The notes under the pieces were generated by a model, which worked only from the letters and a program-made list of their open reading frames with translations, had not been told where the DNA came from and searched no databases. A DNA stretch of 63,934 bases, counting the filler, from Folioceros fuciformis (taxonomy: Eukaryota): the NCBI GenBank assembly GCA_049999805.1. It is 11 parts of 11 records of this genome, joined end to end, with 100 filler letters (N's around TTAATTAATTAA, not from the genome) between each part and the next. Parts side by side here need not be neighbours in the genome. Positions count along the whole stretch, not along the records: positions 48,076 to 56,527 come from JBNGIO010001902.1; 10 more parts are not named here. The stretch is one strand, 5' to 3'. Position numbers and translations under genes: made by a program. How positions within the stretch are numbered: the stretch's first letter is position 1; the number at the start of each line of letters is the position of its first letter. This document shows, piece by piece, positions 33,168 through 58,437 of the stretch.

Positions 33168-34001
33168 TCATCGCGCACATAGACATCTCCCACAAAGGGA
33201 ACGGCCATGCTTTAAAACTTCTAGTGTTCTACGCCTAAACCTAATCTTAACCCTAAAGAAAGTTGCCCATGTTGCTGCTCCCATCCTTGTATTTGATTTG
33301 TGTGTTGATTTGTTGTGAGCCACATAATCAATAGAGTCCTTGTATTCTGGCTGGGTTATCGCCTCTTCGTACGCTGCAAGTGCACGATCGGCATCCTCTT
33401 TTAGCGTTCTACATGTTGCATAAGCTATCTTCTTTGCCATCTTCACCTCTTTACATCTTGCAAGTGTTGTCTTAACTACGGCCTCTAGCTCTCTGTATTC
33501 TAAATAAGCTACTGAGACCACCGCTGCCATCTTTTGGTGTGTTTTGTGAATTAATCCTAGAGCCTCATTCACCTCGTGGCATGTTGAGAAACAATCTTGA
33601 CCAGAAGGTGTTAAGCCTTGCTCTTGCCACTTTTGAAGTTCAATGTGTGCTGTACTTTTCATGATCTTCAACTTTGCGGATGCTGTGCATGTTGTTGAAG
33701 TCACCTCCACAAGTTTTTTATATGCTTCATAAGCCGCAGAGGCTGCTGCCTCCAACTTTTGATATTCCATATAAGCTGTTGAGTATTCAACCTTCATGTA
33801 TTGATATGTCGTGTAAGCTTCTTCTTGTTTTTTGTATGTTGTGATAGCTTCTTGAGCAGCTGCCATTTTATTCTCCATTAATGTTGTGCTCTTGTTAACT
33901 ACATGGGGTGCATTCGCACCCATGCTTCTGTCTTTAAAACACCAAAATTTATTAATTCTCATCACCATGGTGGCGTTCTCAACTCTTTGGTGCTTGATCA
34001 A
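33168..34001 (-). CDS. Orphan helical/coiled-coil ORF (A/Y/E/K-rich), possibly 5'-truncated
   Basis: 277 open codons in AT-rich DNA with 14-residue periodicity. Confidence 0.4.
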   Translation of the reverse strand: MIKHQRVENATMVMRINKFWCFKDRSMGANAPHVVNKSTTLMENKMAAAQEAITTYKKQEEAYTTYQYMKVEYSTAYMEYQKLEAAASAAYEAYKKLVEVTSTTCTASAKLKIMKSTAHIELQKWQEQGLTPSGQDCFSTCHEVNEALGLIHKTHQKMAAVVSVAYLEYRELEAVVKTTLARCKEVKMAKKIAYATCRTLKEDADRALAAYEEAITQPEYKDSIDYVAHNKSTHKSNTRMGAATWATFFRVKIRFRRRTLEVLKHGRSLCGRCLCAR

Positions 34002-34968
34002 AATCANNNNNNNNNNNNNNNNNNNNNNNNNNNNNNNNNNNNNNNNNNNNTTAATTAATTAANNNNNNNNNNNNNNNNNNNNNNNNNNNNNNNNNNNNNN
34101 NNNNNNGCCCAGCAGCGGCGACGGGGGGGGGAGGGGGTTTGGGGAACAAATCGCCCAGCCACGGGCCATGGCGGCGGGGAGTAGGACAGCAAGACAATAG
34201 CGGGGATAGGGAAGTGAGGTGAGAGCTGCCAACGCCAGCGGGGTTGAATTGCTCAGCAACGGGCTAGAATAGCGCTGGCTTACCGGATGGCAGCACAGCC
34301 TGGACAGTGGGAAATCACTGGTCAACGCTTCTCAATCCTACAGTAGCAGTTTGGGGCTGAGTAGATCCAGAAGTGCGGGCTCCCAATTAGGCCTACATGG
34401 ATAGAATCGTGACAAGGCATATGGAAGATGAGGAGGCTGGCGAGGTTGGGGACCATGAACGGAGTGTATGGGGAAGAGACAGTAGTGGGAGTGGGCACGA
34501 CGATGGGAAATCAGCTTGGGGAGCGGATTAGGGAGGAAATCAGGATAGGCAGGAGGGAAACTAGGAAAGAAATCACGAAGAAGAAGAGGTTAGGCCTGGC
34601 CCTACATCGGCCAAATCCTTCAACTTGGCTTAACCTCCTCTTATGCGCACATTTAGTCCTATCACTTGGGGATCTCTCCTCTTGCCTACAATGTGGATCT
34701 AAGGAGGAAGCAGGACAGTGGATCTAAGGAGGAAGCAGGACAGAAGCGGGGATAAGAGGAGAATGGAGAAGAAGCAAGGAAGGGAGGGAGGAAGAGAGGG
34801 ATGGGAGCAGCCGCAGTCCTTTAGTCCATCATGTAATCAGCCAGCCATACCCTGATTACCCTGATATCTGACCTTGACCTTGACATACCCCATATTTCCA
34901 TTCTTAGGTTCAAACAATTATTTAACTATTCTATTATTTTAATATTATTTAATACTATATACCTTTAA

Positions 34969-50250: not shown

Positions 50251-51725
50251 CTAAAGCTTCTTCTACTTGTGCTAGTAGAGGAGTTGCTAAGGACACTAAT
50301 GAAAATACAAGTTGCACACAAGAATATCATCCTTTACACAATTCTCATCCTCAACTTGGTTTCTTCTTCAAAAACCCTCAAACACTTCATTCTGCCCTAC
50401 TCATGATATGTGTTGGAAACCAAAAAATGGATCAAACTATAACTAATGGAGTAGCCATATTTGAGCAAATTGCAGCAATCCACCTGTTCATTGCTATGTC
50501 ACTCTAAAACTCTCCAATCCTAGTTCAAATGGCATGTTTAGGGATGTCGCACTCTAGCTCTCCAAAGCCAGTTTAAGCCCATCTATGCATATCACGCTTG
50601 AGACATTGTATAGAAGTTCAAGCTGCCCATCCACGCATGTGGCGCTCCACATCTCCAAACTGTTTTGCTACGCATGGCACAAACGATGACACCCCTGGTG
50701 TGTTTTCCATGATTCCTAGGTCATCAGTTCCTCGAATGTGTGTTGTGCTCGATCGGCAAGAGCTGCGTCGGCATTTTTTCATAACATACTCTCAGGAATT
50801 GCTCATGCTGGTACTCTGCATAATCTGTCGCATGAGCACCTACCATTACGCAGGCATGTTCAGAATGCCGTAGATGGAGGAGACCCTGAACTTGAACATG
50901 AGGTGCTGCTGAACAAGACAGGGAGACAGGGAGCCCAATTCACTGGTTGTGTTTCTAGATTATCACCTAACGTAAGTCCTACAGAGAATATTGCACAGAC
51001 GATGATACCTTCGGTGTGTTTTACGTGATTCCTTCATCAATCAATTCATCAAGCTTCCTTCAAACCTTTCCTCATGTACTTTCAGGAGTTGCTCAAGCTT
51101 ATGTTTTCCGTAAACTGTTTCTGCATTCTCGTAGGGGGGCACTAGCTAACATTACGCATGTAAGTGTAGAATGCTGCAAGTGGAGGAGAATCTGGACTTG
51201 AATATGAGGTGCTGCTGATGATCGCAGAGCTTAAGACAGGGAAGGGAGCCCTGTTTACTGGTTCTGTCTCCCGATTATCACGTAACTACAGGCCTTATTG
51301 CATGGTTAATGGAGTATTCAGTGAAGCACAGTCGGTTGCCTAACATCGCATCATGCGTCTTGAGGTAAGAGCGTGAAGAATCTGCTGCTTACACATCCAG
51401 ACTGTCCAGTTTGAGCTTGGCATATCGAGGAGTGGAAAGAGCGTGCCGGTTTGGAGCCGGCTGACTGCGTGAGCCGAATGAAGTATGGACACACGAAGGG
51501 AATCACCGAACCACAGCCTAAGACAAGCCGAGAGACGGGTTAAAGCACTCCCGGCTTCCCAGCAATGCAGTATGGGGTCGCCACACGTGCCGTCTCTTGG
51601 TTTTCGAGCTGCGAAAGTGTAGGCTGCAGATGCTTTGAGCTAGAGAGGTGTGTTACCCTGCCTGCTCCTCTTTGGCAATTCTTTGTCTTCCGTAAGTTGA
51701 GGGAACGGCAGGAGAGAATGATGCA

Positions 51726-52422
51726 ATGGTGCAACGTGTGCTGGAATTCGCAAACAGAAGGCTGTCTGACGAGACGGTGGTGCAGATCCGAGTGCTGCAG
51801 GGGGTGGAAGTGACGGTGTTGCTGGAGGCTTTGGCCCCTGGCAGCAGGTCGGAGGACGTATACCAGTCCACCGGGCCAGGATTTCGGGCATCCTTCGTCT
51901 TTCCGATAGTTACTGCCCTCGTTTTGTTCGTCATTTTCGGTATCAGTGCACTCTTCTCATGCTGCCATCACTGGGCGTGGCCCATGCGCAGAGGGTTGGT
52001 GCGGAGAACTGGCCAGCAGGACCGTGACACTCCACCTCTTCTTCTAGCTCCGGCAAGAGAGATACAAGCACTGTACAGAGACTCCCCTGCCTTGTCCAGA
52101 CAAGGCTCCTCGTGCAGGATGCAGGTGTGTGGTTGCATATGGTCATGTGATCAATCTCTTCGTCTAAGATCTTCTCTCACACCTTGTCAGTGTGCTGGAA
52201 AACTTCCGTTCCATTTTGTCCGGTTGAGAAGCGGTGGCTTGGAAATGGTGGCATTGATGTGTGCAGGTGGAGAAAAGCTGCCCGGTGCTTATGCCCGGGG
52301 ACGATGTCCCTCTGTATGTAGCCTGGCCGACACCACTCTCGTTACACATGGCTCACTTGGAATCTTTGCACCTGACAAAGCTCGACTCGGCCGCATCCCA
52401 TCACCAGCAGCAGACCTGGTGA
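51726..52422 (+). CDS. Small single-pass membrane protein, At5g65660-like family
   Basis: Exons 51726(start uncertain)-52124 and 52267-52422; FPIVTALVLFVIFGISALFSCCHHW and PVLMPGDDVPLYVAWPTP motifs. Confidence 0.8.
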
Positions 52423-52878
52423 TGCACCGTCTTACCGACCCGCATCTTCTTGCTCAAACTTTTGCACTGCGATGTTGAGAGAACTGCAGCTGCTTCCCTA
52501 CCAAGTATGTGCGTGCCTTCAATCAAAGCCAAACAGTTCGTTCCTTCCGCCCTCTTATCAGCCTGCAGATCCAAAATTATGATGCTGGACACCCTTCGCT
52601 ACAAGCGAACCCATCTGATTGGTGGTTGATGCCGAAGATTATCCTACCGCTCATCAGCACATCCGGCTTATCTACTACCACAGTACCTGAAAAATGTGTA
52701 CTGAGATGAGAGAATCGTGGATGAGCCACAGAGAACTATGCTGAAATGGAAGCAGCTCATTGGGTGGCTTTCAAGTCACCGGATTTGTTGAGACATCATG
52801 GGTTCCGACCGTTGTATCGAGCTCCGGCTGCCTTCACTGGTGTCGGCATCTCTTTTTTTCAGTTGCTCGTCGAGGAGC

Positions 52879-54666
52879 ATGGCCGTCTCGACCCTGGGCC
52901 TGGCCCTGGGCTCCTGTCGGTGCTCGGGGGGTGTGGGTTCTGTGTCCACCTTCAGGTGCAGGGAGCTGGTGGATTCCTGCCCATTGTCCCTCGCCTCGCC
53001 TTCGCTCGGCAAGACTGGCGGAGTGACAGCAGCGGCTCCGACATGGAGGGCTTCCATACTGGAAAGGCCAGACTCTCTGGAGCACAGGATTGCTGCTACT
53101 CCGGTACATTCCAGGAGGACTATGTTGGGTCTACTGGCTGCCGTCCATTCTCCATCTCTCGTCCCCCGGGCCTTTGCGGAGGAGGAACAATTGAACGGTA
53201 TCGCCTGCTACAAACGATTTCAGCATTAGCGCTCCAAGCTTGCAACATTCTGCGATTCGCACGACGGGCTCTTCGAGTCGTCTGACTTGCAGGCTGCTGA
53301 TCAGTGGTGTCCTGGAATTGCAGACTCGCAAAAGCTCTTCTCACAGATGAAGCAGGTCGTGGAAGAGAGGGTTGCAGAGATGGAACGCGAGAAGGCAGCT
53401 GCTGCAGCGGCGGCGGAAGCAGAATCCCCTGAGGCAGCTGAATCAGAACCCTTGTCCACCACTGAAGACCTGGAATCTCCCTCTCCCAGTCCTTCTGCTA
53501 CCCAGGCCCCAGACCCAGAATCTGAACAGGCAGCCAACACTTCCTCGGAGACAGAGGCCACGGCACCAGAGCCAGAACCTGCACAGGCAGCTTCCACTTC
53601 CCCAGATTCTGAACCTGAAGGGGCCGCTTACACATCCCCAGATCCAGAGCCACAGCCACAGCCAGAACCTGCAGAGGCCACTTACACATCCTCCGAGCCA
53701 GAGCCGGAGCCGGAGGTAGAACCTGCAGAGGCTGCTTACACATCCCCAGAACCAAAAACTGCAGAAGCCACTAACACTTCCCCAGAGCCTGAGCCAGAGC
53801 CTGAGCCAGAACCTGAACCTGAACCTGAGCCTGAGCCTGAGCCTGAGCCGGAGCCGGAGCCGGAGCCGGAGCCTGAGCCTGAGCCAGAGCCAGAGCCAGA
53901 GCCTGAGCCAGAGCCAGAGCCTGAGCCTGAGCCTGAGCCAGAACCAGAACCTGAGCCAGAGCCTGAACCAGAGCCTGAGCCAGAGCCTGAGCCTGAGCCA
54001 GAACCAAACCTAGAACCAGAGCCAGAACCTGCAGAGGCAGCTTACACTTCCCAAGAGGCAGAGGCTACGGCCCCTGAGCCAGAACCTGACTCCTCACTTT
54101 CATCAGAGCCAGCAGAAAGTCCGTCTCCAGATTCCTCAGAGCCCGAAACTCCTGCTGAACCAGCTATCCCTGCTCTCCCTCCTGTCCCCATTCCCACTCC
54201 AGAGTCCCTCACCCAACTAGACGCAACTCTACCGTCCCTGTTAGAGGCCATCAGTCCGGAAGCTTCTCCAGAAGCAGTACAGGCTGTAGAGGTACGAACT
54301 GTGGCTTGTGACACTGTACAGTGCCTCATTTTCTTTCCTGGTCTCGACTTTCCTTTCGCTTAAGTGTGGTTTTATCATCTTGTCCAGGCAGTGGAGGGGA
54401 ACGTGAATCCCATTCTCCCTCTACTCGGCATCGCCGGAACTGCATTGGTTACCGCCATCTACAATCTCAATGAGTTCATTTCCGGACCCAAGGTAAGATG
54501 TTCATTCCACCGTCCTGCTGCTGCTGTGGTTTTGCACTGGTACATGGTACATTGGACCTTATCCTTGCCCATTCCCTTTCAACAGTCTTTGGAAAGTCCA
54601 AGTACGTCCGCCGACGAGTCCCAAGATGGGGCAGTCAATCGGACAACCACCAAATCTGACGAGTGA
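52879..54666 (+). CDS. Putative Tat-targeted thylakoid protein with (Glu-Pro)37 tract and C-terminal TM helix
   Basis: Exons 52879-53197, 53324-54291, 54388-54492, 54586-54666; transit peptide, [12 protein letters not shown]...[10 protein letters not shown] tract 53785-54006, [17 protein letters not shown]. Confidence 0.75.
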
Positions 54667-54939
54667 AGTCCCTTCAAGTGAGTGCGTCCAGTAAGGTGGT
54701 CTGTAGCTGGTAGCAAGGTAGGTTGCCCGGTGTGTTTCCTCCAGGGGTTCGCCGTTCCTCTGGCTACAAATTTGTCTTGACTGTGGGAAGGGACTTGATT
54801 GTATACCCACCACACCAGGAAAATAGTATCGTTAAATTTAAAAAATGAAAATAGGCTAATATTTTGTGATCTTTTTTACAACACAACGAACATGCTTTTC
54901 ATCATTCTGAGATCCCAGTTCGAGGGACCCAACATTGTG

Positions 54940-55297
54940 TAGGTATCTGGTCGACGATGTTGGCGATCCAGGGGCCGAACCGAACCCGAATTCGAACCTG
55001 AACCCGACAACAACCACCCGCAACACAATCACGAAGTTGATAGCAAACACTGTGAATCAGCTCAAGAGGAAGACAGGTTTCCCCACGGCACTCTGCTCAT
55101 ATTTCGTTTCAGGCGCCGGGTAGCAACCTAAGGCCAACAGCTGCAAGGGCATGGGGAGCTGGAATCTGTGGAAGCAAATGAGAAATGGCGGCACCTTACA
55201 GCGCGGGCGGAGGCGATTCTGTTCAAGGTGATGCAGGGATGATGTGGACCCCGAAGGAAACGAAAAGGGAGCGGACGACGGAGTTGATGGGCCCAAG
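54940..55297 (-). pseudogene. Decayed AUX1/LAX auxin influx carrier C-terminal fragment
   Basis: LGPINSVVRSLFVSFGVHIIP...QSAVGKPVFLLS*FTVFAINFVIVLRVVVVGFRFEFG...WIANIVDQI parallels AUX1 GPINSAVGALLVSFTVYIIP...QNAAEKPPFF...VGFGFGGWAS. Confidence 0.8.
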
Positions 55298-55779
55298 GTT
55301 ACGATATTTGGGCACCTGGCCCCAAAGCAGGATGGGAATCTTTGGTGTCGAGGCAGAATTTCTGCACCAGCGAGGTTTCGGGTGGTGGGTCCTCGGTACT
55401 CTCATCTTCTTGTGGCTTAGGACAAATAAATACACACCCTCCCTATAGGAAACGATGCACCGAGGTCGGTTCACTTTAGGACAAGTTATTCAATACCAAG
55501 TCCCGTAAGGAAATTAGGATTGTGCTAGATTTTTTCAAGATTATTAAGTATGATATATATATTAAATAAAAGATGGAAAATCCCATCTACCAAAAATGAG
55601 GAAGTACAACGTGAAGTGAGTAGGCAGGCCAAAGGAAGGACTGGCCCACTCTAATATCATTGTCAAAATTATTTACTTCTCCCATAATGTTGTGATGCTA
55701 AATGACAAAAGCCTGTGGCTACATCTTGGGGCTCAAAGTAGTCACCTACACTTGTCACTCTTCTAGAGATCACACTAGC

Positions 55780-57311: not shown

Positions 57312-58437
57312 ATGCCGCGATAACCAAGTAGTAAGAAAAAATTATCTTTGATGATGGGACAAAAGAAAGAAATAATATTATACAAAGATGCTCATAGTGG
57401 AGCTACTAATCGAGAGGTTAGTGCTTGGGCTTCTCATCAATTCAGCATACCAGTTTCTGCTATGACCATAGGTCGAATTTTCAAGAAGGGAAATGAGTTT
57501 CGAAACGTTAAGGATCATGAAGCTAACTCTAAACGGAAGTAAGGATACATTTCATCCCAAGGTTGAGAAGGCTTTGTTTTCATGGTTTGTGACGATAGAA
57601 GGAAATGCCACTATCTCTGCCGATATGTTGTGTGAAATGGGAAAACAATTCTTTGATAGAGTACCAGAAGCAGAAAGGTTGGAAACACCACTAACATTTT
57701 CTCATGGTTGGGTGGCAAAGGTTAAACATCGACATGACATCAAAGGTTTTGTGAAGCATGGAGAAGCTGCAAGTGTTGACACATCACAGGTGGTCGAAGA
57801 TAGAATGGAAGACATTAAAAGTATCATGCGAGGATACGAGCCTCAAGATATTTCTAACATGGACGAAACAAGGTTGTTCTACAGATTGGAACTGAACAAA
57901 ACATTGGAACTGAACAAAACATTGGCAACGAAGAGGTTGAGTGGGAAGAAAACTCCAAAGGAAAGGCTAACTATTGCTTTTACAGCCAATACGGATGGTA
58001 GTTATAAATTACCACCATTTGTGATCAACAAAATATTGAGGCCAAGAGCTTTTACCAGTCGCAACATTGGACGAGTGGAGAATTTGAGTATTCATTGGTC
58101 AGCAAACTCAAATGCTTGGATATCGGTGGCTTTATTTGAGCAATTTATTCTCTTTTTTGATGCGAACATGAGAGTTAGGGGCCGTACTAATGTCTTGTTT
58201 TTTTTGGATAATGCTCCTGTTCATAAACTATAAGTTGGGACACAAAGTAGGCTTCAAATTACAAGGGTTGAATTTTTTCCTCCTAATGTTACGGCTCATT
58301 ACCAACCCATGCATGCACGCATTATACAATCTTTTAAGGCCAATTACAAGAAAAGGCTTATTCAGCATCAAATCCAAGAGATTCAAAATGGTAATTCTCC
58401 TCTTATTGATGTATATCATGTTGTGACTATGTTGGAA
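57312..58437 (+). mobile_element. pogo/Tigger (Tc1-mariner, CENP-B HTH + DDE_1) transposase pseudogene
   Basis: KVEKALFSWF, FSHGWVAKVKHRH, HGEAASVD, NMDET, KERLT, LDNAPVH, FFPPNVT..YQPMHA; frameshifts and an 18-bp duplication (LELNKT x2). Confidence 0.9.

Follow-up and report, generated by a model that had tools for sequence, protein, structure and literature searches.

We identified in the hornwort Folioceros fuciformis a real, expressed gene, with a spliced transcript for introns 2 and 3, whose predicted product is a thylakoid protein carrying 37 consecutive Glu-Pro (EP) pairs and a C-terminal membrane helix. The gene lies at positions 52879-54666 (+ strand) of the window, the whole 63,934-nucleotide stretch of DNA analysed, and belongs to contig C1902 of an assembly of 87.2 Mb in 7240 contigs. 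The four clean GT-AG-bounded exons given in a preliminary description proved correct, and translate after splicing as a single frame of 490 residues, with 97 Glu and 94 Pro. The features of the gene, all on the + strand, are as follows.

52879..53197, + strand: exon 1, with the start codon, a transit-peptide-like region, the twin-arginine signal and the first mature residues; GT donor at 53198
52879..53112, + strand: predicted stromal transit peptide, residues 1-78 (Ser+Thr 23%, 7 basic, 5 acidic), compared with the two PsbQ presequences of the genome
53113..53178, + strand: predicted twin-arginine thylakoid transfer signal, residues 79-100, with RR at 79-80, AFA at 98-100 and Arg right before the cleavage motif
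53198..53323, + strand: intron 1, 126 nt, GT-AG, with branch-point-like CTGAC/CTGAT; based on a word-share test
53324..54291, + strand: exon 2, with the amphipathic helix, repeat units, EP37 and pre-anchor helices
53326..53424, + strand: N-terminal helix, residues ~109-140, in an AlphaFold2 model (first three 10-residue blocks, pLDDT 84, 92 and 77)
53505..53784, + strand: imperfect tandem units of an AEAAYTS-like motif and a short PE/PQ spacer; five DNA copies 36-57 nt apart, plus a shorter unit just before EP37
53785..54006, + strand: (Glu-Pro)37, residues 261-334, of five hexamer types, every one coding EP
54028..54087, + strand: further AEAAYTS unit beyond the tract, residues 342-361
54202..54291, + strand: two short pre-anchor helices, residues 400-416 and 423-429, in the AlphaFold2 model
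54292..54387, + strand: intron 2, 96 nt, GT-AG, removed in RNA (contig depth 157.7)
54388..54492, + strand: exon 3, carrying the sole hydrophobic helix (residues 435-456, at 54403-54468)
54493..54585, + strand: intron 3, 93 nt, GT-AG, removed in RNA
54586..54666, + strand: exon 4, with a polar tail (predicted stromal) and the stop codon
54678..54942, + strand: minor 3' UTR intron, 265 nt, GT-AG (contig depth 6.2; the contig with this UTR unspliced has 64.3)

Expression is documented by a 659-nt contig of public run X1 (depth 157.7, a measure that cannot rank genes by abundance), from which precisely introns 2 and 3 are missing on comparison with 54025-55100, and which continues through the stop codon. 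Its 193 further letters to the left of the compared stretch would enter the EP tract if collinear. The RNA label of this run is a guess, and it is the exact removal of introns that shows the contig to derive from a transcript. The RNA support comes from one run of one study, possibly of the genome's own material, and from one of four compared runs, with no contig matching the gene region in runs X2, X13 and X14. For intron 1, we relied on word share. Run X1 contains 0.77 of 209 sampled words from 52800-54800, which is as expected if every intron had been removed (0.795, P = 0.22) and too low for the retention of intron 1 (expected 0.874, P = 3e-5), allowing that a shorter 5' end would have the same effect. 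Thus, of the junctions that the preliminary description had offered for checking against RNA, those of introns 2 and 3 are joined exactly, whereas the splicing of intron 1 is indicated indirectly.

A (GS)n reading of the opposite strand, which is equally invariant, was ruled out, since it is on the + strand that the RNA joints read GT-AG. If the transcript began further upstream, an in-frame ATG at 52798 could add 27 residues, but to judge from a pyrimidine run that ends in AG at 52862, this ATG may lie inside a 5' UTR intron. Within 500 nt upstream we found two hexamers that we take to be I-box-like, compared with two at RbcS, one at each of the PsbQ loci, and 0.25 expected. The three coding-region introns are all divisible by three in length, intron 3 being free of in-frame stop codons, and the alternative 3' UTR intron, represented by a low-depth contig, begins 12 nt past the stop codon.

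The immediate surroundings contain further genes and gene remnants. Within reach of the minor 3' UTR isoform, at 54993-55300 (- strand), lies a decayed partial copy of an amino-acid/auxin permease gene of contig C6272 (Pfam Aa_trans; 71% DNA identity over ~300 nt), which we take to resemble AUX1/LAX. Upstream, at 50570-52480 (+ strand), is a single-copy, apparently multi-exon gene with two ~310-nt tandem repeats, 77-82% similar piece by piece, and with a hydrophobic segment, for which no Pfam match was found in the two frames scanned.

The presequence makes it likely that the product is a thylakoid protein. The signal core is identical in 10 of 11 residues to that of PsbQ from the same genome, with 20 residues from the twin arginine to the cleavage site (21 in PsbQ) and a mean hydropathy of 1.09 (1.30 and 1.40 in the two PsbQ sequences), bearing out the earlier call of a Tat-type presequence ending in AFA. 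Sequence features of the cpTat signal class were found, namely RR and hydrophobic residues following a transit peptide, a moderately hydrophobic h-region, and a basic residue before the A-x-A motif (R-A-F-A). These defining features of Tat signals have been described, and the Arg right before AFA fits the one associated with Sec avoidance (PMC6708511); PsbQ is listed as a cpTat substrate (PMC4754418). By established targeting rules, we infer plastid import, cpTat transfer and cleavage after AFA. The protein thus resembles the cpTat substrates PsbQ and PsbP in its transit peptide, RR signal and A-x-A motif, but differs from PsbQ (PF05757) in lacking the four-helix domain, and in having a passenger predicted to be unfolded and membrane-anchored. 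Two separate PsbQ loci are present in the genome, neither with DNA similarity to the gene above 100 shuffles, which speaks against derivation of the signal by duplication from PsbQ and leaves convergence on the Tat consensus or a very old borrowing.

Beyond the signal, exon 2 as modelled by AlphaFold2 from its sequence alone (mean pLDDT 59, pTM 0.19) shows the order helix, disorder, helices, with residues 141-399 free of secondary structure. The short helix of the preliminary description is confidently modelled at residues 110-140; the amphipathic helix begins at ~105, and residues 105-121, with a hydrophobic moment of up to 0.59, are followed by an Ala run. The proposed transmembrane helix corresponds to the sole hydrophobic segment, residues 435-456, whose best 19-residue Kyte-Doolittle mean of 1.77 makes it a marginal but plausible membrane helix, to be followed by the polar tail. 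The topology predicted from these elements would place 334 residues in the lumen and ~35 in the stroma, and we consider a lumenal position of the acidic domain probable. These 334 residues comprise 90 Glu, 8 Asp, 6 Lys/Arg and 83 Pro, for a net charge of ~-92, and only 5 of the 246 residues in 140-385 are large hydrophobics. Since 334 of 390 mature residues fall in two tryptic pieces (121 and 213 residues), the protein would be easy to miss.

We could not find a relative of this protein in any collection searched, in agreement with the earlier statement that no plant family of this architecture is recognised. In none of the exons was a Pfam domain found with E allowed up to 1, the sole match being procyclin (PF05887, 24.7 bits against a cut-off of 100), and no NCBIfam family was matched. 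Word-indexed searches gave no credible homologue among nine candidates for exon 3 (proteins of 162-2000 residues) or among 92 for the helix region (177-564 residues). HMMER with exon 3 alone, of the non-repeat kind proposed for profile search, was run on 1.84 billion representatives with an E limit of 0.001 and returned no plant match, nor any clear match to a characterised family; its two matches, long proteins of beta repeats aligned at 8 and 12 places, were rejected on reading. The ESM Atlas gave no usable match, solved structures none (one designed coiled coil appeared at E 5.5), and neither of two exact sequence look-ups matched. Among 261 candidate metagenome contigs, one match was out of frame inside a bacterial gene and was rejected. 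Each of these queries consisted of one exon, or of exon 3 continued across intron 3, and is less sensitive than the spliced protein would be.

As a control, we queried a hornwort PsbQ presequence, for which 2 of 566 candidates matched, at 53-54%, the best being a Nothoceros aenigmaticus protein. Hornworts are thus barely present in the databases, and orphan status is unproven; the searches would exclude a close relative in well-sampled plants, and say little on other hornworts or remote families. Within the genome itself neither a second copy of exon 3 nor a paralogue was found; weak matches on C6037 (which we take to be a Tudor-SN-like gene) and C6139 were dismissed as chance. No description of such a protein was found in the literature covered, with most subscription journals and preprint supplements outside its scope.

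We tentatively propose that the main job of the protein is that of a lumen-facing, membrane-anchored polyanionic spacer or tether. The nuclear gene would yield a single-pass thylakoid membrane protein which, after plastid import, cpTat transfer and cleavage following AFA, would be anchored by the helix at 435-456. The free N-terminal amphipathic helix could then dock on the face of a membrane or on some partner in the lumen, with the C-terminal helix holding the other end of the chain. Between them, the stiff, self-repelling EP chain would form a charged brush, separating yet linking neighbouring membranes or complexes, and this brush may shrink in the light as protons and divalent cations screen its charge. 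Several points weigh against a spacer or tether, among them the reported limits of Tat on unfolded chains, the marginal anchor helix, the failure of the searches to find an orthologue in which the tract or its length would be conserved, and the readiness with which GARCCN hexamers slip in this genome, which has 20 other arrays.

The dimensions of the compartment bear on this proposal. Procyclins with 24-31 acidic-Pro pairs have been modelled as extended rods of 14-18 nm (PMC2115453), and the computed extended length of EP37 is ~21-23 nm, compared with a reported width of 10.8 +/- 2.0 nm for the spinach thylakoid lumen (PMC12425480). At about twice an ordinary lumen width, as measured in spinach, EP37 does not fit as a perpendicular rigid ruler, and the suggestion that it sets lumen width in that manner is not supported; it fits only as a coil or brush, or in a wider hornwort compartment. 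Coil-radius scaling laws, which ignore charge and proline stiffening, give ~5.3-6.2 nm for the whole lumenal domain, a diameter near the 10.8-nm lumen, and by this estimate a brush would fill or overfill it. Hornwort lumen extension near pyrenoids has been reported to vary with submersion (bioRxiv 10.1101/2025.05.05.652161).

The response to lumen pH that had also been suggested depends on the pKa of the Glu side chains. From pH 7.5 to 5.5, the net charge would go from -92 to -86.5 at a pKa of 4.3, to -69.5 at 5.0 and to -44.7 at 5.5, with ~5, ~22 and 46 protons bound, respectively. The change at the ordinary Glu pKa is small, and a response to pH would require that the pKa be raised by crowding.

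In its most specific form, the protein would be a dedicated Tat-delivered, membrane-tethered lumen polyanion that shapes the channel and pyrenoid-wrapping thylakoids of hornworts, swelling and collapsing with lumen acidification. We think this unlikely as a whole. If true, this would make the protein the first structural 'lumen spacer' in thylakoids, and at the same time a Tat cargo occurring in nature whose unfolded length is ~3 times the reported limit. Hornworts are to our knowledge the only land plants with pyrenoids, and a soft charged spacer would be a concrete candidate for holding the lumen open and building their unusual thylakoids, in a lineage that is transformable.

The tract itself carries signs both of constraint and of slippage, and these bear on whether the linker has a function at all. 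Exactly 37 consecutive EP pairs are present, as previously counted, with codons that vary (GAG 30, GAA 7; CCT 19, CCA 14, CCG 4) while the dipeptide is kept. All 26 unit-to-unit differences are synonymous, at codon third positions, for which the chance is ~0.002-0.008 with four independent changes and 0.01-0.03 with three; EP purity was, however, what delimited the tract, which biases this test, and the flanking units carry PQ, VE, KT and NL variants. The proposed protein-level constraint therefore has modest support, alongside clear slippage signs, since identical units follow one another in blocks within the tract.

The same data allow a rather unlikely reading in which only the N-terminal helix and the anchor are functional, as parts of a small accessory factor, specific to the lineage, of a photosystem or the thylakoid, and the linker grew by slippage and is tolerated while hydrophilic. 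Besides the runs of identical units, it would account for the longer units, which are recent DNA duplications (six matches to the AEAAYTS-like motif in the protein, and five DNA copies that share 67-80% similarity with the first), and for the failure of the searches run to find a conserved orthologue. Similar hexamer arrays are also common in the genome. The six-unit GARCCN pattern matches 90 times in the genome when overlaps are counted, with 32 matches falling here (58 in the genome for a reversed control pattern), and at least six units are found in 20 other arrays on 19 other contigs, all 19 of which were read. None of these exceeds 15 units, however, against 37 in the EP tract, and 13 of the 20 consist of a single pure hexamer, whereas the five unit types here all encode EP. 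Many of the others extend into GP, KP or QP units, although this comparison at the array edges is biased. Furthermore, a long unfolded chain lowers Tat efficiency, so neutral growth to 334 residues would not be free. If the linker is no more than tolerated slippage, the gene encodes a thylakoid protein of an ordinary, lineage-specific kind.

Two places in the genome have the exact codon pattern of AEAAYTS, and both lie inside this gene; an isolated 15-nt exact copy of the AAYTS-motif DNA at 51384-51398, 2.2 kb upstream of the units, is probably due to chance. The second-longest EP-type array (C3648:1455-1544), with EPDES repeats ahead of it, comprises 15 units of three hexamer types and lies within a short open frame.

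A lumenal polyanion need not be a spacer, and could instead be a low-affinity, high-capacity store for Ca2+, Mg2+, Mn2+ or protons. Acidic lumenal Ca2+-binding stretches exist, for example in CAS, and the domain has 98 carboxylates and a computed pI of ~4.05; lumen pH is moreover reported to matter for the hornwort CO2-concentrating mechanism (bioRxiv 10.1101/2025.05.05.652161). Alternating Glu-Pro would, however, leave the carboxylates strung out over an extended chain rather than clustered, and at a pKa of 4.3 only ~5 protons would bind between pH 7.5 and 5.5. We regard this as distinctly unlikely to be its role.

The proposed spacer raises a conflict with the reported length limits of the Tat pathway. 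Unstructured segments of 100-120 residues are reported to be tolerated, with efficiency declining with length, and a short hydrophobic stretch to halt export, the thylakoid pathway being less strict than the bacterial one (PMC6708511, PMC13186574). Low hydrophobicity is named as the property that lets unfolded chains pass (PMC6708511). Passengers of cpTat are expected to be folded, or to have at most ~100-120 unstructured residues; here residues 141-399 lack structure in the single-sequence model, and the mostly unfolded predicted lumenal domain, at 334 residues, is ~3 times the reported tolerance. Either the protein is an exceptional natural Tat cargo, or its topology may differ from what the signal suggests.

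In the latter case, the signal could be engaged and cleaved without translocation, or the protein inserted in reverse, leaving the polyanion to face the stroma and repel neighbouring thylakoids, so that channel or pyrenoid-flanking membranes are kept unstacked. In its favour are the reported Tat length limit and the reported cleavage of signals without translocation, termed 'translocation reversal' (PMC13186574, PMC6708511), and hornwort plastids are described as containing channel thylakoids and thylakoid-enclosed pyrenoids. We find this improbable, as a complete Tat signal with its cleavage motif has been kept, the chain has nearly no hydrophobic patch to stop it, and thylakoid Tat is described as less stringent than its bacterial counterpart (PMC6708511). 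Tat being a route for folded proteins, a lumenal acidic chain of 334 residues behind a PsbQ-grade signal would either break the length rule or show what admits long chains, candidate features being the absence of hydrophobic patches and a negative charge drawn into the acid lumen.

A non-plastid product, such as a secretory or cell-surface mucin- or arabinogalactan-like membrane protein, which might be supposed from the Pro/Ser/Thr-rich repeats, the other N-terminus available from ATG 52798 and a sole Pfam match to a surface protein, is highly improbable, given a procyclin score so far below its cut-off, the lack of a strongly hydrophobic core near the N-terminus whichever ATG is used (best mean over 12 residues 1.55), a hydrophobic segment placed ~35 residues from the end, where a GPI signal would not be, and a PsbQ-like RR signal where a bipartite presequence expects it.

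The likeness to procyclin is compositional convergence only, as judged from the sequences. EP procyclin (PF05887) similarly tethers a long (EP)n tract to a membrane as an extended rod, but forms a trypanosome cell-surface coat, whereas a plastid presequence and an internal helix anchor are found here. Procyclin has an ER signal peptide and a terminal GPI signal; hydropathy scans revealed neither, the N-terminus lacking a strong core and the hydrophobic segment being internal. CAS and TROL are thylakoid rhodanese-like proteins, and we found no rhodanese domain of their type past the membrane helix, where the stop codon follows after ~35 residues, with no Pfam match. The pre-anchor and anchor region, compared with all six retrieved rhodanese loci, gave no score above the shuffle maximum, and none of the six was recognisable as CAS or TROL.

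Further parallels for the proposed spacer lie in its architecture. TLP18.3/Psb32 is described as having an N-terminal lumenal domain on a thylakoid membrane anchor (PMC4754418), as is predicted here, but that domain is a folded phosphatase (TPM), in place of a disordered polyanion without a Pfam domain. MPH1 (At5g07020) is reported as a proline-rich single-pass thylakoid protein of land plants (PMC4754418), and thus also similar to the predicted product, although it is of 24 kDa, compared with a precursor of ~51 kDa here; no homology to it emerged from the search of the 1.84 billion representatives, for which the exon 3 query was only 35 residues long. The EP-containing polyproline-II spacer described for TonB (PMC10666116) likewise joins a membrane anchor to a terminal interaction element across a narrow aqueous compartment, but the TonB anchor is N-terminal and that predicted here C-terminal, and neither a KP run nor a TonB domain (Pfam, NCBIfam) was found. 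By analogy, a membrane-tethered EP spacer would be an element of a known kind, in a compartment and reached by a pathway for which we found no precedent.

We additionally noted several loci elsewhere in the window and genome. A Tc5/pogo-like transposase remnant (HTH_Tnp_Tc5, DDE_1) lies at 57472-58233, and a 296-residue open frame at 33168-34058 (- strand), in which Ala, Lys, Tyr and Glu are abundant and a helical pattern recurs, reaches an assembly gap. The RbcS of the genome best matches PDB 9chz, presumably the Anthoceros Rubisco, with 206 bits against 160.7 for the next entry. Contig C1919 carries an LCIB-family gene, a family reported within land plants from hornworts only (bioRxiv 10.1101/2024.06.26.600872); a hydrophobic segment before its catalytic domain would agree with reports that LCIB of hornworts is localised to membranes. 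Together with the Nothoceros aenigmaticus match of the PsbQ presequence, these two genes mark the genome as that of a hornwort. Finally, the sulfurtransferase and adjoining gene of the short intronless contig C7021 look bacterial, and the assembly may hold bacterial contigs.
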